A program made the position numbers and the translations under genes. The notes under the pieces are model-generated. The model made no database searches. It was not told the origin of the DNA and saw only the letters and a list, made by a program, of their open reading frames with translations. From Polypterus senegalus (Eukaryota), in the NCBI RefSeq assembly GCF_016835505.1, contig NC_053155.1:74596088-74660087 (forward strand): 64,000 bases of DNA, read 5' to 3'. Position 1 is the first letter of the stretch. Each line of letters opens with the position of its first letter. This document shows, piece by piece, positions 9,993 to 60,400 of the stretch.

Positions 9993-10320
9993 CTGACTAC
10001 AGGATCACGGGGGTCTGCTGGAGCCAATCCCAGCCAACACAGGGCGCAAGGCAGGAAACAAACCTTGGGCTGGGCGCCAACCCACCACAGGGCGCGCACA
10101 CACACACTAATTACACAGACACCAAGCACACACTAACAACAATTTAGAGTCACCAATGCACCTAACCTGCACGTCTTTGGACTGTGGGAGGAATCCAGAG
10201 TACCCTGAGGAAACCCACGCAGACACAGAGAGAACATGCAAACTTCAAGCAGGTAGCACCCAGGAAGCGAACCCGGATCTCCCAACTGCGAGGCAGCAGC
10301 ACTACCCACTGTGCCACCAT
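9993..10320 (-). mobile_element. DANA-like tRNA-derived SINE (copy 1)
   Basis: This is the reverse complement of ggcacagtgggtagtgctgctgcctcgcagttgggagatccgggttcgcttcc...tccaaagacgtgcaggttaggtgcattggtgactctaaattg...ggctgggattggctccagcag... A-box and B-box-like head motifs are present. Confidence 0.8.
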
Positions 10321-17989: not shown

Positions 17990-20222
17990 GTATCGGGCGT
18001 GCTAATTGATAATGTTCTGGACATAGTAAATTCGTCATTACATACGGGGGTCTTCCCAGACTGTCTTAAGACTGCTGTAGTTAAACCCCTTCTTAAGAAA
18101 CATAATCTCGACCCCTCGGCTCTTGAAAATTTTAGACCCATCTCTAACTCGCCTTTCTTAAGTAAAGTTCTAGAGAAGGCAGTCATCACGCAGTTAAATG
18201 ACCATCTCAATAAACATGCTATTCTTGATAAATTTCATTTTGGTTTCGGAACAAATCACAGCACAGAAACGGCACTCATTAAAGTAGTAAATGATTTGCG
18301 AGTGAATGCAGACAGAGGCCATTTATCTGTTCTCATCCTCTTAGATCTGAGTGCTGCATTTGACACCATTGATCATAATATTCTTAGAAATCGCCTTAGT
18401 CAATGGGTGGGCCTCTCTGGCAGTGTCTTAAATTGGTTTGAATCCTATCTGGCAGGAAGAAAATTCTTTGTTAGTTGTGGTAATCACATCTCAAAGACAC
18501 ATGATATTCTATATGGTGTTCCACAAGGCTCTATCCTGGGTCCGCTGCTCTTCTCAATCTATATGCTTCCGTTAGGTCAGATTATCTCAGGGCACAATGT
18601 GAGTTACCACAGCTATGCTGATGACACACAGCTGTACTTATCAATAGCACCTGATGACCCCGATTCTCTTGATTCACTAACAGAATGTCTGACTAGTATC
18701 TCAGAATGGATGAATAGTAACTTTCTCAAGTTAAATAAAGAGAAAACTGAAATCTTAGTGATACAACAACAACATTTATTTATATAGCACATTTTCATAC
18801 AAAAAAAATGTAGCTCAAAGTGCTTTACAAAATGAAGAATAGAAAAATAGAAGACACAATAAAAAATAAAAATAAGTCAACATTAATTAACATAGAATAA
18901 GTAAGGTCCGATGGCCAGGGTGGACAGAAAAACAAAAAAAAACTCCAGAGGCTGGAGAAAAAAAATAAAATCTGCAGGGATTCCAGACCAAGAGACCGCC
19001 CAGTCCCCTCTGGGCATTGGCAATAATGGATACAATCAGGCTATTAGAAATAAACTGGATACATTAGGATTAAAAGTCAAGACGGAGGTAAAAAGCTTAG
19101 GGGTAATTGTTGACTGTAATCTGAATTTTAAATCGCATATTAATCAGATCACTAGGACAGCATTTTTTCACCTAAGAAACATAGCAAAAGTTAGACCTCT
19201 TATATCACTGAAAGATGCAGAGAAATTAATTCACGCGTTTATTTTCAATCGACTAGATTACTGTAATGCACTCCTCTCTGGACTACCCAAAAAAGACATA
19301 AATCATTTGCAACGAGTGCAGAATGCAGCTGCTAGAATCCTAACTAGGAAAAGAAAATCCGAACACATTTCTCCAGTTTTGATGTCACTACACTGGTTAC
19401 CTGTGTCATTCAGGATTGACTTTAAAATTTTGCTTATGGTTTATAAAGCCTTAAATAATCTTGCTCCATTTTATATATCGGAATGTCTGACACCCTGTAT
19501 TCCAAATCGTTACCTTAGATCTTCAAATGAGTGTCTCCTTACAATTCCAAAAGCTAAACTTAAAAGAAGTGGTGAGGCGGCCTTCTGCTGTTATGCACCT
19601 AAAATCTGGAATAGCCTGCCAATAGGAATTCGCCAGACTAATACAGTAGAGCACTTTAAAACACTGCTGAAAACACATTTCTTTAACATGGCCTTTTTAT
19701 AACTTCAGTTTGACTTAATCCTGATACTCTGTATGTTCAATTCATAATAACTATTCATGGTGGCTCTAAAATCCGTACTGACCCCTACTCTCTCTTCTGT
19801 TTCTTTTTCCATTTTTTTTCCTGCGCCACCACCACCTACTCAAAGCATCATGATGCTCCAACAATGATGGATGGATTAAAAGTTAGAAGTCTACGTGACC
19901 ATCATCATCAAGTCCTTCCGTGAGAACCCTAAATCCAAAGAGGACTGTTTCATTTATGTTAGGTAGAATGCCCAGAGGGGACTGGGTGGTCTCTTGGTCT
20001 GGAACCCCTACAGATTTTATTTTTTTCTCCAGCTGTCTGGAGTTTTTTTTTGTTTTTTCTGCCCACCCTGGCCATTGAACCTTACTCTAATTCTATGTTA
20101 ATTAATGTTGACTTATTTTATTTTCTTATTGTGTCTTTTATTTTTCTATTCTTTATGTAAAGCACTTTGAGCTACTGTTTGTATAAAAATGTGCTATATA
20201 AATAATTGTTGTTGTTGCATGG
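17990..20222 (+). mobile_element. L2-type LINE copy with RT domain, ORF2 C-terminus and complete 3'UTR, 5'-truncated
   Basis: The RT ORF at 17999-18787 reads FRPISNSPFLSKVLEKAV...LDLSAAFDTIDHNIL...GVPQGSILGPLLFSIYMLPLG...YADDTQLYL. The ORF at 19023-19702 reads HLRNIAKVRPLISLKDAEKLIHAFIFNRLDYCNALLSGLP...LHWLPVSFRIDFKIL...AFCCYAPKIWNSLP. The 3'UTR ends in (TTG)n at 20222. Confidence 0.85.
18771..19022 (-). mobile_element. Antisense L2 3'UTR fragment nested inside the ORF2 of the L2 at 17990-20222
   Basis: It interrupts the ORF between ...TEILVI and ...GNNGYNQAIRN. It is the reverse complement of 19960-20222, so the two form a 250-bp inverted repeat within one LINE copy. Confidence 0.6.
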
Positions 20223-21369: not shown

Positions 21370-22645
21370 GCACCATACGTCACTGCAGTTGTAGACCCGC
21401 AGTTACAGACCCGGAAGTGGCGTCACCTTCGTTTCAGGACTGACTTCATAAAATTACTTTTGGAAGGTTTCGGCCGGTCTCGGCAAAACCCGGAAAGTAA
21501 CGTCGGGTCAAGGAGCCGTTCAGAAATTAAGCGATAAAAATGAGAAGGGAAAAACAGTACACGAAAAACCAAATAATACGCATCATTGTGAAGTTCAGAG
21601 GGTTTCTGCCGTCACATCGTGCCATACTTCAAACTAAACAATACGGATCGTTTCTGTGAAATACACCATTAACATTTACATTGTGTTCGGGTCTGTGAGA
21701 ACCGTTTAACATGTCGACAAAATTAAAATCATCAAGATCTGTGTCAATTGAAAAGTTTTTCGTTTACATTCATGAAGCGAAATATACAATATAATTACAA
21801 TATTTACACCACGTTAAAGTTTAGTAAAACGTTAATAATAAAAGTTATTACGTTTTTTTAAATGTACAGTGCAATATTGTTCTAAACCAATATAGAATAA
21901 ACATTTATGCCAATCTGATATTTTTAAACATGCATGTGAAGAAAACGGCAATACACATTCTACACTGAATTATGCTATATATTAATTCAGTATAGAACTA
22001 CTCTAGTTTTTGTCACATATTACTATAAACGATGCACCATCAAAAGAAAAAAAAAGAAAAATACTAATAAGAACACAATTTATTTATATAGCACCCTTCC
22101 TATGCCCAAAACTCAGAAAGAACAACAGGACCGTTACAACATTGGCTACAAATAATATCTCACTAAATAAAGATAAATACAGGATATACAAAACATTCAA
22201 ATAGAATAAAAGACAATAATCCAGGCTAAAATACAACATATAATGCTACAAAAAAAGCTTGAACAAATAGCATAAATTGTGATAAAAATGCAAACCCTGA
22301 GTACCTGGACAGATAGAGGGGGTAAACTGAAAGAAGGGGCAGAATGTCAGGTCTGTTTAATGTCTTCCTAAACAAATTAATGGAGTCAGCTGATCTCATT
22401 CATTTTGGGAGGTCATTCCACAGTCTGGGCGCTATACAGTTGAAGGCCCTGCTGTCACCCACAGAGTACAGTTAGTGAGGGGCACAGACTGAGAGGACCT
22501 TAGTGGGAAGGTTAATAACAGAATTTGATCTTCAATCCTGTAAGACACAGAGAGCCGTGAAGGTGCAGCAGGATGGCTGTGATGTGCTCGCTGTTGTTGG
22601 TTCATGTCAGGACTCTTGCAGTTGAGTTTTTGAATCAGCTGGAGC
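21370..22645. repeat. Inverted duplication, arm A (reverse complement of 26222-27400)
   Basis: Blocks that I aligned by hand are about 92% identical. One example is gacccggaagtggcgtcaccttcgtttcaggactgacttc (21400) against rc(27340-27395). Another is the L2-tail block gaatttgatcttcaatcctgtaagacacag... (22590) against rc(26222-26340). Confidence 0.8.
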
Positions 22646-25869: not shown

Positions 25870-26800
25870 AATTAAATTTAAATTAAAACCTGAACAGAGC
25901 AAAACTTTTTAAAATTAAATTGCAACATAACTGATCTCCTGCAAAGTGGCACTAAAGTGCAACTTAAGAAAACAAGCTCCTCTTCAACCATTCTTGGCGA
26001 TGATCTCATCAGATCTTTTTGTGCAAAGAATCTTGATGTCACTTTGATTCCTCCTTTTCTTATTTCACCCATGTAACCCATATTAAGAAACTTCCACCTG
26101 TGTCACATTTCTTATGTTTGCTCATTGCTCTCCTTTTCTAATGCTGAGAATCTTGTCCCTGCTTTTATCACATCCAGCATTGATTATTGTAAGTCACTAC
26201 TGGCAGCAGGTGCCATTTCTAATCTTATATCACAGCTCCAGCTGATTCAAAACTCAACAGCAAGAGTCCTGACACAAACCACCATCAGTGAGCACATCAC
26301 AGCCATTCTGCTGCATCTTCACTGCTCCCTGTGTCTTACAGGATTGAATATCAAATTCTATTATTAACCTGCCCACTAAGGTCCTCTCAGTCTGTGCCCC
26401 CCACTAACTTGCACGCTGTGGGTGACAGCAGGGCCTTCAGCTGTATAGCACCCTGACAGTGGAATGACCTCCCAAAATTAATGAGATCAGGTGATTCCAT
26501 TCATTTGTTTTTAACTCATTTGTTTAGGAAGACATTACACAGACCTGACATTCTGCCCCTTCTTTCAGTTTACCCCCTTTACCTGTCCAGGTACTCAGGG
26601 TTTGCATTTTTATCAAAATTTATGTTATTTGTTCAAGATTTTTTGTAGTATTATATGTTGTATTTTATTCTAGATTATTGTCTTTTATTCTATTTGTAGC
26701 CAATGTTATAACGGTCCTGTTGTTCTTTCTGAGTTTTGAGCATAGCAAGGGTGCTATATAAATAAATAGTGTTCTTATTAGTATTTTAATTTTTTTTCTT
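25870..26800 (+). mobile_element. L2-type LINE 3' fragment (ORF2 C-terminus plus 3'UTR); its 3' part forms the inner end of inverted-duplication arm B
   Basis: Translations give ...AENLVPAFITSSIDYCKSLL...LQLIQNSTARVLT...HITAILLHLHCSL, frameshifted, and the 3'UTR ends ...gggtgctatataaataaatag. Confidence 0.7.
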
Positions 26801-27400
26801 TTGATGGTGCATCGTTTATAGTAATATCTGACAAAAACTAGAGCAGTTTTATACTGAATTAATATATAGCATAATTCAGTGTAGAATGTGTATTGCCGTT
26901 TTCTTCACATGCATGTTTAAAAATATCAGATTGGCATAAATGTTTATTCTATATTGGTTTAGAACAATATTGCACTGTACATTTTAAAACATGTAATAAC
27001 TTTTATTATTAACGTTTTACTAAACGTTAACGTGGTGTAAATATTATAATTATATTGTATATTTCGTGTCATGAATGTAAACGAAAAACATTTCAATTAA
27101 CACAGATCTTGATGATTTTAATTTTGTCGACATGTTAAATGGTTCCCACAGACCTGAACACAAGGTAAATGTTTATTGTTTAGTTTGATGGCAGAAACCC
27201 TCTGAACTTCACAATGAAGCGCATTATTTGGTTTTTCGTGTACTGTTTTTCCCTTCTCATTATTATCGCTTAATTTCTGAACGGGTCCTTGACAAGACGT
27301 TACTTTCCGGGCTTTGCCGAGACCTGCTGAAACCTTCCAAAAGTAATTTTCCGAAGTCAGTCCTGAAACGAAAGTGACGCCACTTCCGGGTCTGTAATAT
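26222..27400. repeat. Inverted duplication, arm B
   Basis: See arm A at 21370-22645. This arm combines the L2 tail with about 620 bp of non-TE sequence whose outer end carries CCGGAAGT repeats. Confidence 0.8.
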
Positions 27401-27723: not shown

Positions 27724-29308
27724 TACCGTGCATCCGGAAAAGTATTCACAGCGCATCACTTTTTCCACATTTTATGTTACAGCCTTATTCCAGAATGGAT
27801 TAAATTCATTTTTTTCCTCAGAATTCTACACACAACACCCCATAATGACAACGTGAAAAACGTTTACTTGAGATTTTTGCAAATTTATTAAAAATAAAAA
27901 AACTGAGAAAGCACATGTATATAAGTATTCACAGCCTTTGCCATGAAGCTCAAAATTGAGCTCAGGTGCATCCTGTTTGCCCTGATCATCTTTGAGATGT
28001 TTCTGCAGCTCAATTGGAGTCCACCTGTGGTAAATTCAGTTGATTAGACATGATTTGGAAAGGCACACAGCTGTCTATATAAGGTCCCACAGTTGATAGT
28101 TCATGTGAGAGCACAAACCAAGCATTAAGTCAAAGGAATTGTTTGTAGACCTCTGAGATAGGATTGTCTCGAGGCACAAATCTGGGGAAGGTTACAGAAA
28201 AATTTCTGCTGCTTTGAAGGTCCCAATGAGCACAGTGGCCTCCATCATCCATAAGTGGAAGAAGTTCTAAACTTAGCGATCGGGGGAGAAGGGCCTTAGT
28301 CAGGGAGGTGACCAAGGACCCGATGGTCACTCTGTCAGAGCTCCAGACGTCCTCTATGGAGAGAGGAGAACCGTCCAGAAGGACAACCATCTCTGCAGCA
28401 ATCCACCAATCAGGCCTGTATGGTAGAGTGGCCAGACAGAAGCCACTCCTTAGTAAAAGGCACATGGCAGCCCGTCTGGAGTTTGCCAAAAGGCACCTGA
28501 AGGACTCTCAGACCATGAGAAACAAAATTCTCTGGTCTGATGAGACAAAGATTGAATTCTTTGGTGTGAATGCCAGGCGTCACATTTGGAGGAAACCAGG
28601 CACCGCTCATCACCAGGCCAATACCATCCCTACAGTGAAGCATGGTGGTGGCAGCATCATGCTGTGGGGATGTTTTTCAGCGGCAGGAACTGGGAGACTA
28701 GTCAGGATAAAGGGAAAGATGTCTGCAGCAATGTACAGAGATATCCTGGATGAAAACCTGCTCCAGAGCGCTCTTGACCTCAGACTGGGGCGACAGTTCA
28801 TCTTTCAGCAGGACAACGACCCTAAGCACACAGCCAAGATATCAAAGGAGTGGCTTCAGGACAACTCTGTGAATGTCCTTGAGTGGCCCAGCCAGAGCCC
28901 AAAGTTGAATCTGATTGAACATCTCTGGAGAGATCTTAAAATGGCTGTGCACCGACGTTTCCCATCCAACCTGTGCTGCAAAGAGGAATGGGCGAAACTG
29001 GCCAAGGATAGGTGTGCCAAGCTTGTGTTATCATATTCAAAAAGACTTGAGACTGCAATTGCTGCCAAAGGTGCATCAACAAAGTATTGAGCAAAGGCTG
29101 TGGATACTTATGTACATGTGATTTCTCAGTTTTTTTATTTTTAATAAATTTGCAAAAACCTCAAGTAAATTATTTTCACGTTGCCATTATGGGGTGTTAT
29201 GTGTAGAATTCTGAGTGAAAAAATTAATTGAATCCATTTTGGAATAAGGCTGTAACATAACAAAATGTGGAAAAAGTGATGCGCTGTGAATACTTTTCGG
29301 ATGCACTG
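27724..29308 (+). mobile_element. Tc1-like DNA transposon, nearly full length with about 180-bp TIRs (IR/DR type)
   Basis: The left end accgtgcatccggaaaagtattcacagcgc and the right end gcgctgtgaatacttttcggatgcactg are inverted copies. An internal 260-aa DDE transposase ORF is present. Confidence 0.9.
28308..29090 (+). CDS. Tc1 transposase, catalytic DDE part (...[11 protein letters not shown]...[14 protein letters not shown]...QQDNDPKHT...[17 protein letters not shown]...)
   Basis: The ORF is 260 aa. The N-terminal HTH part (28100-28300, ...[34 protein letters not shown]) is in another frame, so this is probably a frameshifted, non-functional copy. Confidence 0.85.
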
Positions 29309-39680: not shown

Positions 39681-40016
39681 AGGGCGGCAGAGTGGCGCAG
39701 TGGGTAGCGCTGTTGCCTCGCAGTTAGGACGCCCGGGTTTGCTTCCCGGGTCCTCCCTGTGTGGAGTTTGCATGTTTTCCCCGTGTCTGCGTGGGTTTCC
39801 TCCCACAGTCCAAAGACATGCAGGTTAGGTGGATTGGCGATTCTAAATTGTCCCTAGTGTGTGTGTGTGTGCCCTGCGGTAGGTTGGCGCCCTGCCCGGG
39901 GTTTGTTTCCTGCCTTGCGCCCTGTGTTGGCTGGGATTGGCTCCAGCAGACCCCCATGACCCTGTATTTGGGATATAGCGGGTTGGATAATGGATGGATG
40001 GATTCTTTGAGGGAGA
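39681..40016 (+). mobile_element. DANA-like tRNA-derived SINE (copy 2) with a (GGAT)n tail
   Basis: The head is ggcagagtggcgcagtgggtagcgctgttgcctcgcagttaggacgcccgggtttgcttccc. The core is ...ccacagtccaaagacatgcaggttaggtggattggcgattctaaattg... The tail is ggatggatggat. Confidence 0.85.
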
Positions 40017-40160: not shown

Positions 40161-42814
40161 TTCATTTTTAAATTCTTTTTTAGGTTTCTTAACCTTCTCA
40201 ATTACTGTTAACCTTATCCTTCTTGCTTCTCCTACATATTGGAGATCTGGATTAAAATAGTGCCATATGTTTTCCACTTCAAAATGATAGTCATTCCTGT
40301 GTTTTAAGACATATTTAAAACATCTAGTCTTTTTTACTGAATATCTTCTAAAATCTCCTCATTTCAATTGTTTCTTTTCTAGCAGAGGAGATCTACATTA
40401 GCAGCTAATTTTATTCACTGAACTTAAGCACCTGTAAAATTTTAAAAGCAGTGAACCATCCATCTGTCCATCCATCTACATTACATTTTAGATCCTGTGT
40501 ATCCAGTTAAGAGTGACATGGATCAAGTGCCTACAACAGGTGCCCTGGGCACAAGGCTAGAACCAACTCTGAAGTGGTTATAATTCACTGAAAGACACAC
40601 ATACACACACATTTGGTCGTCTGGGTCAATTCAAACTTGGCAATAAACTAGGTCTCCCACATTCTTTGGAATATGGGAGGAAAAACATGGAAAAACCTCT
40701 ACAGACATTGGTAAAAAGGTGTAAATTAACATAGGATTTGAATCCAGGAGTTTCAAGCTGTGAGGGAGCAGCATTGACGATTGAATCACTTCTAGGAAAC
40801 TAATACTGGAGCAAATTAGCAATTAATTTTATTAATGCTTGTTTATGCTAATTGAAACTATTTTTCTTGTTTGCCATTTTAAGTTAAATTTTCTGGTTTT
40901 TAACCATTTTGTTCATATGCAGTTTTTGTCTTACAGTGTATTTATACACGTTAGAAAATACTGAATGCTTTTTGTGTTAGCCTTTTATCCCAAGTAATGA
41001 GAACATTTTGAAAGAATGTGAAGATTTTTATAGACATTAGGCAATGTGTTGACCATTGATTATTTGCTTAAAAATATACTGTTGTGTTAGTGGTACAGTA
41101 GATTTTAAATTATTCTAAAGTAAGTAACAAAGAGTGCACAGCAGATCATTTGGGGGAGGTTACTAAGTCAAAATGAGCCTTTATTAGAACAATGGAAGGT
41201 AAAGAAAGCACACATATGGCTTGCTAACCCCATCTTAATTGACCCACTGACAGCAACACCTGGCTTGTTTTACTGGTAACTGACAGCCACCTTTATTAAC
41301 AGTGAGTTGGCATCAATTCATGCACAGGATGGTCTTAGCTGTGATTCTGCCCTCAGCTTAAATTCCAAAAAGTCAGGCATAGAATGAGCTCTGTTTTTAG
41401 TTTCCCAGTAGCTCCAGATGGCCACATGTGCTATTTATTTGTAATTATATTCCAAACTAAACACAACACTTTTTCTACCACAGTTACCAGCATATGTTGC
41501 AGATTTGCTTACAATTCCGTTTTAATGTTCTAAGTTGAAAATGCACATTCAATAATTTCTAAGGTGAACTGAAGTGAGTAGCAAAATAAAGATGTAAAAA
41601 GTACAATTTGGATACTACTGTCATAAATGATATTTTACGTTTTTTTTGAACCAATGTGGCTGAATCAAGTAGTGCTGTTATTTTATTATAGAAGTGTGAC
41701 AGTATGACAGCAGAAAAAACAATATTGTGCGTGTGTGGGATCAGTCTATATTTAATGTGGATAAAAATTGTAAAATGCATACTGAATGCAGGTAGCATAG
41801 CAATCTTAGGTGGTGTCAACAAGGCTAGGATTCTACTGCTCCTTATTTTAAGCAAGTCTGTTGAAACTAAGTTTTAATATAATACTTGTACAATGATTAA
41901 TTACAGAATAATTATTTGAAAAGGAGGAAGCAAAATGGTGCTGTGATTACATATCTCAAAGACACATGGCTACAAATCTGTGTGGAGTTTGCACCACCAC
42001 CTCATGTTCACATAGTTTTTATGTGTTATTCTAAAGATGTTCATTATAGATTATATGAAGTCTTATAACTCCTCCAGTGTGAATACACGTGGATGTTTAG
42101 ATGCATTTACCCAATAATGGAAGGAGGACCTTGAAGGACTGATTCTAGACTTTCTCACAGTTTTAGGCTTAAATGGGTCTGAAAAGCACAACATTTTTCA
42201 AGTTAAAGTATTTAGTCTAACAGATGTTGGAATGGCATTACACATAGAGTAATGACATATCAAAAAAGTGTCAGAACCATGAAGAATGTAAATAAGTATA
42301 AAACCTAACAAAATGGTTGGCAATTACTTATGATACGAAATCAAATCAGAATGAATTAACTTTTCATCCTTCTTTCTTAGTTTTTCTGTTTTGTTATTAT
42401 TGTTTTTATTATGGTCAATTTTTTATTAATCTATACTAATAAAATGCAAAGCCCTCACTCACTCACTCATTCACTCACTGACTCATCACTAATTCTCCAA
42501 CTTCCCGTGTAGGTAGAAGGCTGAAATTTGGCAGGCTTATTCCTTACAGCTTACTTACAAAAGTTAAGCAGGTCTCATTTCGAAATTCTGTACGTGACGG
42601 TCATAACCCACGATAACGGTCGACAACGTCCGCCATGTTGAACTTTATTACTTATGTGCCCATCTTCAAGAAATTTGGTACGTGGGTTCCCAACGCTAAC
42701 TGAATCCTACTTACGTACATATATACATCCATAGCCTGCAGCTCTGTCATCGTGTGAGGTGCCGTTGGGTCCCCCATCCCAACGCCTCCCACGTTGATGG
42801 CTGCCTGCCTATAT

Positions 42815-42830
42815 AAGGCCGCTCCGGTCT
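42815..42830 (+). promoter_or_regulatory. TATA box (ctgcctatataaggccgc) upstream of the OTU-like ORF
   Basis: A TATATAAGG motif lies about 200 bp upstream of the ATG. A putative short intron (cgt|gtatgt ... ttgttcag|) may lie within the 5' leader. Confidence 0.4.
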
Positions 42831-43026
42831 CTACATTCCCTTCCTTGCTTCGCCATGGGATTCACATCTCCCTGCTGATAACTACAGCCTATTTATTTAA
42901 TCCATGGCTTCTCCGCTGTTTTATTGTTCATTTATTACAATTATAGTTATCGTGTATGTATTTTAGACTTACTTTACATTGTTCAGGTACCCATTTCCTT
43001 TATCGTTCCAACCGTATCCCCACTAA

Positions 43027-43513
43027 CATGTCTATCAAGGTGATCACTATCGATCAAAGAACTGTCACTTACCGAGTGGTTTCCATGCCTGGAGATGGCA
43101 CCTGCCTTTTCCATTCTCATTGTTACATATTGCACAGCCATATCAGGCTCACTCTTGATATCCGGAGGAACATTGTGTCTTATGTATTGAATGACTGGGA
43201 CAGGTTCAAGGTGTGGACTGATGACGGTACAGGAGATAATTATACTACACAGGAGCACTATAAGAGTGAAATACTTAAGCCCTTCACCTATGGTTCTGCA
43301 TGTGAGTTGATGGCTGCCACTGAATTGTTCGGTTGTCGCTTTCAAGTGTACCGAAATGGCCAAATATTTTACACCTTTCGACAACCGGCAATGCCTCTTA
43401 AACATCTTAGATTGACAGGTGACAATTTTAGTAGTGTACATTTTGATGTTTATGAATGTTTAAACTCTCAAAAGCTGGATGCGAAGTTATCGATGAAACC
43501 GGTTGTATGCTAA
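43027..43513 (+). CDS. OTU-family cysteine protease-like ORF (162 aa): MSIKVITIDQRTVTYRVVSMPGDGTCLFHS...SVHFDVYECL...
   Basis: It has the Cys box PGDGxCLFHS and the His box (S)VHFD(V) at the canonical spacing of about 120 aa. It is an uninterrupted ORF in an otherwise ORF-poor, TE-rich interval. CpG dinucleotides are retained across 42560-43200. Confidence 0.6.
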
Positions 43514-43849
43514 CAACGCTTGACAGATGCCGAATGTCACTTCAACACAAGTCCTGCAAATACTGTCGTAATTGAAACAAACCATGAAACACAAACTGAT
43601 TATGACAGCAGCAATCCAAGCTGTGAGATTTGAGACGAGATTACTTTTCACATGGCCAACTGTACGTTGCATGCTCAAGAGTAAGCTCAGCGCACAGCTT
43701 GATCATATTACAACTGGAGGGCCGAACTGACAATGTGGTATACAAAGAGATCCTTAACAAATAATTATTGGTATATTTTCCCTCAGTTTTAAAAGGTTTA
43801 ATTTTCTTCTTTATAAAAATTTTAAGGCAGTACTTTGCTGGGAGGCAGT

Positions 43850-44650
43850 GTGTTTAACAGAAGGCAGAAGTGAAAACAGGGGATAAGCTGATGCCTGGCA
43901 TCTGAGATGATGGATTTAGCCCTCCTCAAACACTGGGTGGAGTAGATGGTATGAAGCTGTAGATGGTCACCCTATGTGATTTTAGAGGCAGTATGGGTGG
44001 TTACAATCCTCACAGTCAGGTTACCAAACCACACCATGATGCATCCAGTCAGTATACTTTCAATAGTGCAGTGATTGAAGTTCACCAGTATGTTGATTCT
44101 CACCCTTAGCTCCCTTAGGAAAAAGTGTCTTTGGTGAGCCTTTTTTGAGGATGCTGGTGGTGTTGACAGATCATGAAAGGCAGCGAGTGATACAGACCCT
44201 CAGGAATCTGAAGCCGCCTATTGTTTAGATGTGGGAACCATTGATGTGGAGTTGAGTATGATTTCCTTTGGCCTTCCTGAAGTTGAAAATGACCTCCTTT
44301 GTTTTGTGGACTTTCATGGAGGTTGTCATCATGGTATGATTCAGTCAGGTCTAACCTCCCTCTTGTATGTAGCTTCTTCATCGTTGATGATGCCAATCAC
44401 AGAGGTGTCTAATGCATACTTGGTGATGCTGTTGCTCATGATCATAGGAGAGTAGACCGTATAGCAGTGGGCTGAAGCAGTAACCTTGTAGAATGCCAAA
44501 GTGAGTGAACAGTAGAGGTGTTCTCCTTTACAGTCCTCAATGACTAGGGTCTATTTGTCACAAAGTCAATCACCAAGCCACAGATGGAGCTGCTCTGAGC
44601 TTTAATATTAGGCTGGAGGGCTCAAGCAAGCTTAGTTGTGTTTTCCATTA
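43850..44650 (-). mobile_element. Retroelement fragment (LINE-type ORF2 C-terminal motif)
   Basis: The minus-strand translation ...FFLRELRVRINILVNFNHCTIESILTGCIMVWFGNLTVR... resembles the widespread fish repeat motif FYSCVVESILTSCITVWYGNC. Confidence 0.45.
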
Positions 44651-55001: not shown

Positions 55002-58000
55002 CTAGCCAACCCGTGGCATAGCAAACACCGCATAATTATTTATTGATGACTGAACACTTCTTGAAAGACAGTTGTCCAAATGGGGTGGGTTTGAGGATGT
55101 AACTGTGAGTGAATGAAAAGATGGAACTCTGGAGAGAGCAACATACAATTGTCTGTGACTGAAAACTGGTTTTGGCAGATACAGGCATATCTTTTTGAAA
55201 GTTTGTCCCTGTGCCTTATTAATTGTCATTGCAAATGCCAATCTAACAGGAAATTATCTGCGTGTAAAAGGCAAATTTGAATCTGATGGGGTCAGGGATA
55301 TCTGGGGAATAAGGACAGTTTGTGAGGTAGCAGCTATGATAGCCTTACACTCCAGTACATTGCGGTGAATGCTGGTAACAGAAAGTCTAGTGTCATTACA
55401 GAGACCTTTTGCTGGCAGGAGGTTTCTGAGAAGCATGATGACTGAACCAATTTTAATTTTGAGTTTATTCAGAGGCATGCCAGTGGGAGTAAGACTATTA
55501 AGAAATTCTTCGGGGAATAAAAGTTGATCTGCAGGATTGTCTGTGATGATGGAGTCAACGCTGGTGAATGTCACTTCGTCGGTAAGGATAAGTTTCAGCA
55601 CTTGTTCATTAAGGTGTAGCGAGTCTTCATTGGTGATGCTTAATATAGCTCGCGTGCTGAGTTGTTCCAGAGTGACAGTTGAGAAGTCGATGTCGCCATA
55701 TAGTTGTTGAACGGGATCAGAAATAAAAGGAAAACAATCTGAAGGCAATGTCACAGGTATTCTGTTTTTCCTGTCTCCAACATTGAGGAGCCATTTTGCG
55801 AAATGTTTTTCTTCAGGAAGAGCTCTCATATTTGTCGTAACTCTACAGCTTCGGGATCTGTCTTGTTGAGTTCAAACCATGCTAAGAGCATAGTGTTTTT
55901 GTTGGCTTGTCTTTGTGGCGCTTGTTCCTCGTGACCCTCATGAAAGAAGATGACTTGTTGTTCTGGCAAATGAACTGGTAATCATGTAATAACGTGAGAT
56001 TTTTCTGAAAGACTGTACTCGTTCAAACGCCACATAGCTCAGGAGCACTAACATACCTACCATCAAGGAAAGTCTGTATTTCGTCATGTTGGAAAACACC
56101 ATCGGCTGGCTCCATGTGAAGTGCAATGGATGCAGCGTTGTGTCCTTTGTAGACTTATATAGATACTTGATACATTGAATGGACACGCAAACTTCCACGT
56201 TAATATGACCATTGAATTTCTAAAAAAGCCAGGGATTGTAAGGAACTATCCAATGGTTGTCGATATCGTATTACCCAACAATGGCAGTTCTCCCCTGTCT
56301 TCGGCGGTATATGGGGTATCCTTGTGTGTTTTCTTGAGTCTCTGCATTGAAGTCCTTTGGGAAATTTTTGGTACACGTGCTGTCTTTCATGCAAGGTGAG
56401 TTTGCGTTGAGCATTCCACACGGACCATGTACCATGCATTTAGTGACAATTTGGAAAAGTCTGTCCGGATTTGGAAGCTCAGCGCAGACAAATTTGTCTA
56501 TATCATCCTTGGTCCTTATTTTGGATTGTGAGTCAAGTGTAAGTAACATATGGCAATGAGACAATCCTCGTTTTTGGAATTCAATGACGAAGATGTAAGC
56601 GAGAACATTGCCGAAAACATTCTTCTCTAGAATATCTGTTAGGAAATCTCGTAGTTTGATATGAAAGACGCGAGCAACGATGTCAGGTCTGTGTTCTGTT
56701 TGCCCATGATGGGAAATGGCGTTAGAGATTTCTGGCCAAGCAGGATTGCAGGTGAAGGTTAGGAATAAGTCAGGCTTGCCACACTTGCGGACAATTACCA
56801 TCGCATCTTTGTAGTTCTGTTGCATGTACCTTGGACTGCCTTGAAAGGCAGAGGGAACAATGATCAATTGTCCAGGGCGGAAGTTATGGTGTTGTGCTTT
56901 TGCAGCGATAGCATCCAGCAGTCCCCTGTATTGCTCTACCCGCAAATCTTGTTGATGGGACTGTAGGTAATTTAAACGCGCGCTTTCTGTTCTGACATAT
57001 GCGTCAACGACATATTGCTGGAAGAGTTTGCCACTGGAATGCAAGACGCTAAATGAAGATCTCATGGCAAGCCTGTAAGCATAAAATTGGAGCTGCGTGA
57101 CTCTTGTTCTTTTCTCGGTTCGCTTTTCTTCAACATGGGTCAATTGTATGTGCCAGCCTAGATCTCCGTAAGGGAATAGCAGTGGATAAACCATGGGGTC
57201 ACAGTTCATATTGAGTACAGAGATACTCTTGCAAGCATTTCCCCTTGGGTATATGCAAATGTCGCGTTGTGCAGGAGGTTCCCCGTCTTCACCTACAAAG
57301 ATAGCTGCAACAACAGTTTGACAGGATGGGGCGTTATACCTTCTCATATCTTGAGTTGGATTTTCTATGAATACCATTCGTACAGCAGCAACAGGGTTAC
57401 TGTGAGTGATAATGTCACGCATTTGCATGTAAGACTTAGCAAAGGGAATTACCTGTCGTATCATGTGGTCTAGTTGTAGCAACATTCCTTTTGCAAACAT
57501 TGAGTGGTAGCCTCAGCTGAATCGAAGATATATAGCTGACCGTATTGTGGTGACGTGTTAGGATTGGTATATAAAGGAGAGACCTGGTGATAAATTTGAC
57601 TGTGGAGTCTGAAAGCATACGGTCCGTGGCCAGATGGCTGAGCGATGTGTGCACCCATTGAAGCTAAAGCAGTGTTGTATTCCCCGATATGATCACAGTA
57701 ATTCCGTGACAGCGAGTTCTTGCTAGTCAAGAGGTTTTGTAATAAAAGAGGAGGTTGGGATAGCGGTGGCAAAGTGAGTGTGTATTTTGTGTGCACATAC
57801 CGACATTGTCAATAGATGGTACCAGAACGTCAGCAGGTGTGTTTGTGAGAGGCAAGAGAACTTCATAATGCCCATGATCCAAACAAGCGCTAAAGAGCAG
57901 GGCTATGGAGAGACGTTGGCTCTGATTGTACACTCGAGGAGAGGCATGAGGACATTCTCGGAAGTGAATGGTGATAGTAGCTGCAAGTATTTGGCACATT

Positions 58001-58666: not shown

Positions 58667-59030
58667 AGGGGTGGCACGGTGGCGCAGTGGTAGCGCTGCT
58701 GCCTCGCAGTTAGGAGACCTGGGTTTGCTTCCCAGGTCCTCCCTGCGTGGAGTTTGCATGTTCTCCTCGTGTCTGCGTGGGTTTCCTCTAGGCGCTCCGG
58801 TTTCCTCCCACAGTCCAAAGACATGCAGGTTAGGTGGATTGGCGATTCTAAATTGGCCATAGTGTGTGCTTGGTGTGTTTGTGTGTGTATCCTGCGGTGG
58901 GTTGGCACCCTGCCCGGGATTGGTTCCTGCCTTGTGCCCTTTGTTGGCTGGGATTGGCTCCAGCAGACCCCTGTGACCCTGTGTTCAGATTCAGCGGGTT
59001 GGAAAATGGATGGATGGATGGATGGATATT
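58667..59030 (+). mobile_element. DANA-like tRNA-derived SINE (copy 3) with a (GGAT)n tail
   Basis: The head is ggggtggcacggtggcgcagtggtagcgctgctgcctcgcagttaggagacctgggtttgcttccc. The tail is ...cagcgggttggaaaatggatggatggatggatgg. Confidence 0.85.
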
Positions 59031-59699: not shown

Positions 59700-60400
59700 A
59701 GGTAGGGATTCACTAGCATATGTGGTGTGGCAGAAAAGTAATGAGACTGGCAACACTGCAAGCGATCTGGCAACGCTGCGCTGTTGTCCTTGATAGAGCA
59801 CGTGTATCAGTACCCTCCCATAGCTCAGTGCGAGTTTCAACTCCTTACGTTAACTACGTGATTTTTGTCACTGCTATTAGCGAAGTTGTGTTTTTGGTTG
59901 TGCGTCACGCAAAAGGGAACAGCGGAATTTGGAGCAACGTTGTGCCATTAAATTTTGTGTTAAGCTTGGAGAATTTTTATAAAGACGTCCTTGAAAGGCT
60001 CAGAAAAAGGGTCATTCGCGTGAGACCAGACATTGCAGACAAATGGATGCTCCATCATGACAACACCCCATGTCACACTGCCCTCTCCATAACAGAATTT
60101 TTTACCTCAAAAGGCATTCCTGTGGTCCCCCAGCCCCCTTATTCACCTGACCTCAGTCCGTGTGACTTTTTCCTTTTTCCTAAACTGAAAAATGTCCTCA
60201 AAGGACGTCATTTCGGGACTTTAGAAAACATCCAAAAGAGTGTAACGGACATACTGAAGACCATACCGGTTGAAGACTTCCAGCGCTGCTACCAACAGTG
60301 GGAACAACGTCTCCATCGGTGTGTAGCTGCCCAAGGGAACTACTTTGAAGGGGATAACATTGATGTTTGAAAAAAATAAAAACTTTGGTAAATAAAAAAT
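59700..60400 (+). mobile_element. mariner-family transposon fragment (transposase C-terminal half)
   Basis: The ORF at 59720-60370 reads ...HHDNTPCHTALSITEFF...PQPPYSPDLSPCDFFLFPKLKNVLKGRHF..., the DD34D mariner signature region. The 5' half and the TIRs are missing. Confidence 0.75.

Follow-up and report, generated by a model that had tools for sequence, protein, structure and literature searches.

An OTU protease-like reading frame in Polypterus senegalus lies in what is very probably a young, decaying copy of a dispersed Helitron-derived repeat

We analysed a stretch of 64,000 nucleotides of the Polypterus senegalus genome (contig NC_053155.1, positions 74,596,088 to 74,660,087 of the forward strand), hereafter the window, in which an earlier note had pointed out an open reading frame (ORF) for an OTU-family cysteine protease. 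The ORF was found on the plus strand at the position given in Table 1, where the features of the locus are collected; the start at 43027 and the length of 162 aa reported for it were each one off. The interval around this unit is packed with nested transposable elements (TEs), and a C-terminal fragment of a LINE reverse transcriptase begins on the minus strand at about 43830.

Table 1. Features of the OTU-containing unit, in positions of the window
Feature	Position	Strand	Remarks
(CACT)n-like microsatellite, left edge of the CpG-retaining unit	42456-42483		may be part of the unit or, read on the minus strand, the tail of the neighbouring LINE
5' region of the repeat unit: CpG-retaining block, TATA-like box and leader; putative Helitron 5' region/promoter	42500-43027	+	left boundary approximate
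Candidate TATA box TATATAAGG	42810-42818	+	210 nt 5' of the ATG
Proposed 'mini-intron'	42954-42986	+	33 nt; AG at 42985-42986 acts as acceptor in gene models
OTU cysteine-protease domain ORF	43028-43513	+	161 codons + TAA; from Pfam, homologues and AlphaFold model
Catalytic residues of the ORF	Asp23; Cys26 (codon 43103-43105); His138 (codon 43439-43441)	+	
TAA stop in place of a Leu codon (presumably TTA>TAA); nonsense mutation private to this copy	43511-43513	+	from other copies
Continuation of the family reading frame (QRLTDAECHFNTSPANTVVIETNHETQTDYDSSNPSCEI, then stop)	43514-43633	+	in the window copy cut off by the TAA before it; P0006, P0008, P0012, P0013, P0014 and P0016 read through
Helitron/Pif1-type helicase end (DLRRDYFSHGQLYVACSRVSSAHSLIILQLEGRTDNVVYKEILNK, then stop)	43627-43764	+	last 45 codons + stop; out of frame with the OTU ORF
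AT-rich 3' stretch holding the right boundary of the unit	43765-43830	+	no G+C-rich hairpin or CTRR end found

Both OTU signatures that had been read from the sequence, PGDGTCLFHS and SVHFDV, were found in the ORF, and the assignment to the OTU family held. The ORF scored just over the cutoff of Pfam PF02338 (23.9 bits against 23.3, E = 6.2e-5), the same model was matched by 40 of 41 aligned family members, and a protein search returned 380 homologues at E<=1e-3, including 179 at E<=1e-10. A profile of the family matched OTUD5 at 7e-14. In the homologue alignment D23, C26, F28, R46, Y78, G89 and E93 were invariant and His138 was kept in 37 of 40 sequences, and Asp23, Cys26 and His138 are all present in the window ORF. 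The ORF was modelled by AlphaFold (AF2) with a pLDDT of 91.1 and a pTM of 0.84; the best 50 PDB matches in a structure search with this model were OTU domains in every case, and the Foldseek comparison with OTUD3 gave E = 5e-9 with TM values of 0.67-0.76. The ORF thus encodes an OTU-type cysteine protease (deubiquitinase-like) domain, whose enzymatic activity is predicted from sequence and model. It shares the fold and the Asp-Gly-x-Cys and His motifs with OTUD3, OTUD5/DUBA, yeast Otu1/Otu2 and nairovirus vOTU, but its identity to cellular and viral OTU deubiquitinases is just 13-20%, and the window copy has replacements at conserved positions. Scanning metagenomes with the ORF gave 156 pattern matches, with no relatives among them.

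The remnant of a Helitron helicase was found on the same strand about 115 nt 3' of the OTU ORF. In amino acid sequence, this tail was 79% identical to P0156, which ends a helicase frame of 462+59 aa on L001; its identity to the C-terminus of the other Helitron of the window (55178-55101, minus strand) was 61%. All nine of its PDB matches were Pif1-family helicases or related ATPases, including residues 1444-1463 of Helraiser, and a further relative, P0157, bears the name PIF1. RepHel is represented in the unit by the last 45 helicase codons only; the Rep domain and the helicase core are missing, as would be expected of a deletion derivative, and the element cannot be an autonomous one. We place the putative deletion junction at about 43627-43636. 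Two copies, P0012 and P0016, share sequence with the window only to 43633, i.e. to the first bases of the tail and within a few nucleotides of this junction. The ORF had been described as separate and intact amid shattered TE frames, and this was not confirmed: the helicase C-terminus follows on the same strand, and comparison with other copies shows the stop of the ORF to be a nonsense mutation (see below).

The termini of the unit were sought by the criteria for HLE1 (5' TC, 3' hairpin with CTRR, a site between A and T) and HLE2 (subterminal inverted repeats (subTIRs), 3' palindrome, a site between T and T). Around the unit, neither a 5' TC with a G+C-rich 3' hairpin and CTRR nor convincing subTIRs were found. 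The best inverted match was an AT-rich pair of 10 of 11 nt (42432-42442 and 43765-43775), of which about two would be expected by chance.

In more distant relatives of the ORF, the OTU module is collinear with RepHel and precedes it. In P0083, a homologue from another species, OTU (residues 11-102) and Helitron_like_N (389-547) follow each other in one protein, and in P0026 OTU, its sole Pfam match, is followed by a Cys-rich stretch that we read as the N-terminal zinc-finger region of a Helitron. The window itself holds a second Helitron. The Rep/Hel remnant noted about 12 kb away was located at 55254-57500, on the minus strand, and a weak candidate for an OTU remnant at 58047-57730 (minus strand), which precedes the Rep ORF by about 230 nt, probably gives this element the same order. 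The OTU ORF was rejected as a part of that Helitron, which lies on the opposite strand, has no nucleotide similarity to the unit and reaches just 61% identity in the tail. OTU is a known accessory domain upstream of RepHel in Helitron-like elements, reported in Helentron/Helitron2 (HLE2) and some HLE1 (Thomas et al. 2014, PMC4067079; Li et al. 2024, HELIANO, PMC11417382; Erven et al. 2022, PMC9741609). As of the last of these studies, no transposon OTU had yet been assayed for deubiquitinase activity or for activity on ISG15.

Among the origins that the earlier note had left open for the ORF (domesticated, TE-borne or virus-derived), the TE-borne one, from a Helitron, was upheld. It is extremely improbable that the locus is an endogenous viral element with a nairovirus- or baculovirus-type OTU, even though the best single-sequence PDB match of the ORF was the OTU of a nairovirus L protein and many baculovirus VP80/P87 capsid proteins have an N-terminal OTU of the same family. 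A literature search for OTU in baculovirus VP80 found nothing. Viral OTUs were no more similar to the ORF than small eukaryotic homologues were, its nearest cellular relatives are Helitron-linked, and no further viral gene lies nearby; the physical link of the ORF with a Helitron helicase tail makes it unnecessary to invoke a virus.

The retention of CpG dinucleotides described for positions 42560-42800 was confirmed, with 15 CpGs and an observed/expected ratio (o/e) of 1.12, the window as a whole having 0.39; among 241-nt windows the block ranks in the top 1.4-2.6%. Retention was in fact uniform across the unit, with an o/e of 0.73 throughout 42500-43765 against 0.14-0.15 in each flank, and the change in CpG density on the left side falls between 42336 and 42506. 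A recent insertion and an unmethylated promoter had both been suggested as the cause. The second was discarded as the main cause since the whole unit retains CpG and the ORF itself shows CpG>CpA decay: four of its nine private replacements are CpG-to-CpA transitions, so that the youth of the insertion is the better explanation.

The same density bears on whether the two coding parts belong together at all. An OTU repeat of other origin could have come to lie by chance beside an unrelated, older 3' fragment of a Helitron; none of the recovered copies spans the whole junction, no Helitron termini were found, and nested TEs crowd the interval. We consider such a juxtaposition quite unlikely. The two parts lie on the same strand, 115 nt apart, at equal CpG density that drops sharply outside them; OTU of this family is fused to Helitron Rep elsewhere, and probably stands before Rep in the second Helitron of the window too; and the sequence of P0012 and P0016 reaches the first bases of the tail.

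Upstream of the ORF, the TATA-like box was found as described, although such motifs are common in this AT-rich window, where five instances of TATATAAG and 118 of TATAWAWR were counted. Translated in antisense, 42709-42896 was 74-89% identical to four further P. senegalus gene models, and the peptide ALYRQAA across the candidate box was kept in all four of these antisense-exon copies. The 45 nt 5' of the ATG are common to the copies P0001, P0002, P0012, P0015, P0017, P0022 and P0027. The sequence proposed as a mini-intron in the leader exists, but its reading as an intron was rejected on length; at 33 nt it is, to our knowledge, shorter than any vertebrate intron, and GTATGT at 42954 is too close to the AG at 42985-42986 to be its donor. 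Scanning 41500-44500 against Rfam gave no matches, so the upstream block is not accounted for by a SINE-like element or an RNA gene.

Pieces of the repeat were found in at least 41 'partial' gene models of P. senegalus on 12 chromosome-scale contigs, at 62-96% amino acid identity; the copies are thus known through gene models, a biased sample, and were compared as protein. Among these close proteins 37 match the ORF and another 4 the upstream block, and every one that was traced proved to be a chimeric 'partial' gene model, with names such as TFF3, AGAP3, PDGFD, CLPX and FRYL. Sequence switches from host to repeat exactly at the acceptor AG 42985-42986 in at least seven models; both this entry and the exit, via a donor GTGAGT at 43302, are recurrent. 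A frame of about 200 codons is retained in several copies. The full-length OTU-Rep-Hel parent was sought in Polypterus, and none was present among the recovered matches; the long matches P0111, P0134, P0155, P0063 and P0027 were dismissed as an autonomous parent, all of them being host-gene chimeras.

Comparison of the copies showed that the window copy is mutated. Six of the seven other copies that cover position 43511 read Leu there and go on, so that the TAA of the window ORF is a Leu-to-stop mutation. The window copy also has I82, R118 and V137, where the distant homologues mostly have M (38 of 40), G (37 of 40) and G (36 of 40), respectively. Of 18 close copies, 5 have the catalytic Cys at position 26 and 13 have lost it, 12 of them to Tyr and 1 to Ser, and columns conserved in the family deviate in 16.9% of cases among the close copies against 6.8% for other columns. 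Judged from these alignments, neither catalytic nor family-conserved residues appear to be under purifying selection in the copies, which argues against domestication.

The earlier note had proposed copy number as one check on a domesticated gene, and the count disposes of a single-copy gene. A host OTU deubiquitinase at a single locus, with a CpG-island-like promoter, would account for the open frame with its catalytic motifs and for the CpG-rich upstream block with its TATA box, yet it is highly improbable: the unit is multi-copy across 12 chromosome-scale contigs, purifying selection on the coding sequence was not found, the stop is a nonsense mutation against the consensus, CpG>CpA decay has affected the ORF, and a helicase remnant is attached. 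The exact 161-aa ORF is, moreover, not on record as a protein; neither it nor the 185-aa ORF was present in a collection of 15 billion proteins that includes assemblies of sequencing runs.

It is also quite unlikely that the unit is a functional TE gene, i.e. that the derivative family has kept a stand-alone OTU deubiquitinase, expressed under its own promoter and acting in trans in Helitron mobilisation or against host ubiquitin/ISG15 defences, with the window copy or its stop-free siblings active. The intact Asp23/Cys26/His138 triad of the window copy, the confident folding of its model as OTU, the location of the TATA-like box within a segment conserved among copies and the frame of about 200 codons kept in several of them would agree with such a role. 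Against it, Tyr stands at the catalytic Cys in 12 of 18 close copies and conserved columns are unprotected, the window copy has both a premature stop and replacements at three positions that 36-38 of 40 distant homologues leave unchanged, and the exact ORF is missing from the 15-billion-protein collection. We regard as very unlikely the more specific proposal that a polypterid family of Helitron deletion derivatives without RepHel propagates a promoter-driven OTU deubiquitinase, in which some stop-free copies with Cys26 would be expressed and active in trans, stabilising the transposition proteins of Helitrons or blunting ubiquitin or ISG15 defences of the host, as a 'semi-autonomous' accessory-gene element.

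The unit was then compared with known systems. The OTU accessory domain of Helitron-like elements, an OTU-like cysteine protease whose catalytic residues are conserved and which lies upstream of, or N-terminal to, RepHel, has its counterpart in the unit: the homologues P0083 and, by our reading of its sequence, P0026 have just this order, and in the window the ORF is followed by the RepHel C-terminus. In contrast to those elements the unit lacks Rep and nearly all of the helicase, as a deletion derivative would; no AP endonuclease follows the helicase end, and the unit is therefore not a classical Helentron. Non-autonomous deletion derivatives of Helitrons and Helentrons are reported in the literature to arise often. 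With those known as HINEs/DINE-1 the unit shares a dispersed multi-copy distribution, the retention of 5' and 3' parts of the parent and the loss of RepHel, but those elements have no coding capacity whereas the family of the window unit keeps an OTU frame of about 200 codons, and their defining subTIRs and 3' stem-loop were not found in the window unit. A horizontally transferred Helitron family, Heli1Xen1-b, has been described in Polypterus and Erpetoichthys (PMC12001565). As described there, it is like the unit of Helitron origin, recent and from this lineage of fishes, but that study mentions no OTU; Heli1Xen1-b may be the other Helitron of the window at 55-58 kb, or neither of the two.

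Taken together, the unit at about 42500-43800 is very probably one young, neutrally decaying and internally deleted copy of a dispersed Helitron-derived repeat. It would consist of a Helitron-like 5' region, an N-terminal OTU module and what is left of RepHel, its final 45 codons, an internal deletion, possibly a single event, having taken the zinc-finger region, Rep and almost all of the helicase. With these lost, the unit could not transpose on its own, and any mobility would be that of a non-autonomous element with RepHel supplied in trans. The relative youth of the copy would explain both its retained CpGs and its open frame, while the nonsense mutation, the CpG-to-CpA transitions and the three replacements at conserved positions are what neutral decay would leave. 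In the parent element, the OTU may have served as a deubiquitinase that shields transposition proteins or counters ubiquitin-dependent control by the host, as the literature suggests. The ORF of the window is neither a stand-alone nor a domesticated gene; as a mutated copy of a dispersed Helitron repeat it is ordinary.

The locus calls for caution: with its clean ORF, its intact catalytic motifs, a TATA box and the CpGs it retains, a decaying Helitron copy here passes for a gene. Given that pieces of the repeat entered at least 41 gene models through one recurrent acceptor and one donor, the annotation of P. senegalus holds systematic chimeras. The copies also permit reconstruction of the consensus Helitron OTU.

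The open frame of 161 codons was found to encode an OTU domain, as the earlier note had proposed, and both catalytic signatures named there were present, PGDGTCLFHS at residues 20–29 and SVHFDV at residues 136–141. The match to Pfam OTU (PF02338) was barely over the curated cutoff (23.9 versus 23.3 bits), and an exhaustive phmmer search with the ORF collected 380 proteins at E ≤ 1e-3, 179 of them at E ≤ 1e-10. In an alignment of the ORF with 40 distant homologues (29–44% identity), where PF02338 was matched by 40 of the 41 members, D23, C26, F28, R46, Y78, G89 and E93 were invariant and H138 was kept in 37 of the 40 homologues. Human OTUD5 matched the family profile at 7e-14, spanning both catalytic motifs. 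An AlphaFold2 model from the family alignment reached a pLDDT of 91.1, and its best 50 PDB matches were OTU domains throughout, including OTUD3, DUBA and nairovirus vOTUs.

The ORF did not prove to be stand-alone, given that the extreme C-terminus of a Helitron/Pif1 helicase, DLRRDYFSHGQLYVACSRVSSAHSLIILQLEGRTDNVVYKEILNK, lies 115 nt downstream on the same strand; the gap showed no Rep or helicase-core likeness. This helicase tail was 61% identical to the matching part of the other Helitron in the window and 79% identical to the database protein P0156, the end of a long helicase frame on contig L001 that finishes ...AGVDLRNDCFSHGQLYVACSRVSS...NVVYKEIF*, while a second match, P0157, carries the source name PIF1. 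All nine PDB matches of the tail were Pif1-family helicases or related ATPases, among them Helraiser (residues 1444–1463 of 1496), with E-values that were weak because the query was short. The suggestion that the ORF was TE-borne was right. L001 and L002 are short assembled contigs (Logan SRR32481585, SRR32481593) bearing a Helitron helicase frame, the last 59 residues of which were 79% identical to the window tail (68% at the nucleotide level), and may represent a related Helitron lineage of another species.

Features located in the window
Feature	Position	Strand	Remark
(CACT)n microsatellite	42456-42483		left of CpG-rich unit
Antisense donor GTAAGT	42709-42714	-	ends antisense exon in 4 models
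TATA motif TATATAAGG	42810-42818	+	sequence
Recurrent splice acceptor AG	42985-42986	+	at least 7 models switch into repeat exactly after it
OTU ORF	ATG 43028 to TAA 43511-43513	+	open frame
Recurrent splice donor GTGAGT	43302-43307	+	~15 models exit repeat here
Helicase tail	43627-43761, then stop	+	frame differs from OTU ORF
LINE reverse-transcriptase C-terminal fragment	~43830-44520	-	motifs in translation; adjoins unit's right side
Helicase end, other Helitron	55178-55101	-	
Pif1 2B domain, other Helitron	55254-55829	-	domain match
Helitron_like_N ORF, other Helitron	56271-57500	-	E=2e-62
Weak OTU C-terminal half	58047-57730	-	family profile; ~230 nt upstream of other Helitron's Rep ORF
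~6-kb element, inverted repeats ~1.2 kb	21403-22630 / 26249-27397		90-95% complementary
Tc1/mariner transposase ORF	among 28308-29090, 59720-60370, 17999-19702		HTH_Tnp_Tc3_2 + DDE_3 matches
Second transposase-like ORF	among the same three		sole match DDE_3, below cutoff
LINE RT ORF	among the same three		RVT_1
Short repeat (≤~300 nt), 3 copies, possibly a SINE	39692-39968 / 58689-58985 / 9993-10317	both	

The upstream block was CpG-retaining as described, with 15 CpGs at 42560–42800, an o/e of 1.12 versus 0.39 for the whole window, and a rank in the top 1.4–2.6% of 241-nt windows. Dense CpGs extended beyond the block, from 42506 to 43723, and the o/e was 0.73 for 42500–43765 and 0.14–0.15 in the left and right flanks. 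The TATA motif by itself was unremarkable: the window is AT-rich and contains 118 matches to TATAWAWR. The proposed mini-intron (42954–42986) measures 33 nt, shorter than any functional vertebrate intron known to us. The most CpG-dense portion of the block also holds CGCCATGTT (42631–42639), a putative YY1-like core site (GCCAT); the YY1 core motif is employed by some TE promoters. A search for Helitron or Helentron end structures found none. The LINE fragment on the right translates as ...GIINDEEATYKREV...FNFRKAKGNHTQLHING...LFSLLPS, and the (CACT)n tract on the left could, in the minus-strand reading, be its tandem-repeat tail, in which case the LINE 3′ end would lie no more than a few tens of nucleotides from the point where the Helitron fragment inserted.

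An exact-sequence protein look-up of the ORF returned no record. The traced close relatives (62–96% identity) were each a ‘partial’ P. senegalus gene model bearing an unrelated host-gene name, including TFF3, AGAP3, PDGFD, GNPTA, FRYL, CLPX, ST7, ANX10, ARTN and MCE1, in which part of the OTU ORF was spliced onto host exons. In total, 37 such chimeric proteins cover the ORF, and the contigs named for copies were 12 chromosome-scale sequences. When the upstream block was queried in all six reading frames, four further models emerged (RPGF6, DYH8, SMCA1 and DIEXF), holding an antisense translation of 42709–42896, TATA box included, at 74–89% identity, so the supposed promoter block is likewise repeated. 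Rather than a gene, the OTU unit is a dispersed repeat. The cryptic splice sites that its copies repeatedly supply reflect either exonisation on a wide scale or a systematic artefact of the annotation, with at least 41 ‘partial’ models affected.

The ORF had also been regarded as intact. At the site of TAA 43511, six of the seven Polypterus copies that span it encode Leu and read on for 38 codons to ...SSNPSCEI* (43631–43633), indicating that the window stop is a private TTA>TAA nonsense mutation. This is one of nine private changes relative to the copy consensus, four of which were CpG>CpA transitions, the pattern expected of methylated DNA. Three replacements fall on positions strongly conserved family-wide: M82I (M in 38 of 40 distant homologues), G137V, adjoining the catalytic His (G in 36 of 40), and R118, common to some copies (G in 37 of 40). 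At the catalytic Cys position, 12 close copies have Tyr, 5 keep Cys and 1 has Ser; the Tyr majority suggests that the subfamily which amplified had a dead active site. Family-conserved columns deviated more often than other columns (16.9% versus 6.8%). Taken with the replaced Cys, this gives no sign that purifying selection has acted on the OTU of these copies.

The Rep/Hel remnant placed about 12 kb away was located at 55254–57500 on the minus strand. The OTU-like stretch preceding it (VYAGDAEIVAMCQIL...LDHGHYEVLL) scored weakly, at E=1.3e-4 within the window with the family profile, at E=0.008 with Pfam OTU, which is below its cutoff, and at a probability of 74% in hhalign, and no N-terminal Cys half was found; it is probably a diverged OTU C-terminal half and an in-window case of OTU–Rep–Hel order. 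In P0083, an aphid protein distantly homologous to the ORF, OTU (residues 11–102) is followed by Helitron_like_N (389–547), and in P0026, whose sole Pfam match is OTU, the domain precedes a Cys-rich stretch, interpreted here as the zinc-finger region of a Helitron N-terminus. The order in P0083 is that of known elements: an accessory OTU domain recurs upstream of RepHel in Helentron/Helitron2, and also in some HLE1 elements (PMC4067079, PMC11417382).

Eleven further proteins (P0066, P0096, P0105, P0106, P0117, P0122, P0126, P0136, P0140, P0152 and P0154) matched the window OTU with E-values between 1e-12 and 6e-21 and carry an N-terminal OTU of the same Helitron-type family. In the six that were Pfam-scanned, Nucleo_P87, a baculovirus capsid domain, was matched as well. 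Two others, P0066 from Adoxophyes honmai NPV and P0117 from Calliteara abietis NPV, have P80/VP80 as source names, and the remaining three have the same sequence at the C-terminus. Full-text searches found no literature tying VP80 to OTU; the fusion may already be covered by the original description of the OTU superfamily. The fusion may reflect transfer between insect Helitrons and baculoviruses; a virus-derived origin of the window ORF was unsupported.

In sum, the best-supported reading is that the unit comes from an internally deleted, and so non-autonomous, Helitron, and that this copy is relatively young and decaying neutrally, with its frame open and its CpGs retained because the insertion is young. 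On this reading it has kept the N-terminal OTU module, preceded by the 5′ region and followed by the final 45 codons of RepHel; in two copies, P0012 and P0016, the shared sequence reaches 43633 and no further. Domestication was not supported, the unit being multi-copy and its copies showing no sign of purifying selection. Deubiquitinase activity of a Helitron accessory OTU has never been assayed (PMC9741609). In practical terms, the family draws attention to chimeric gene models that recur systematically in the annotation of P. senegalus; a consensus Helitron OTU from its copies is a candidate for biochemical testing.
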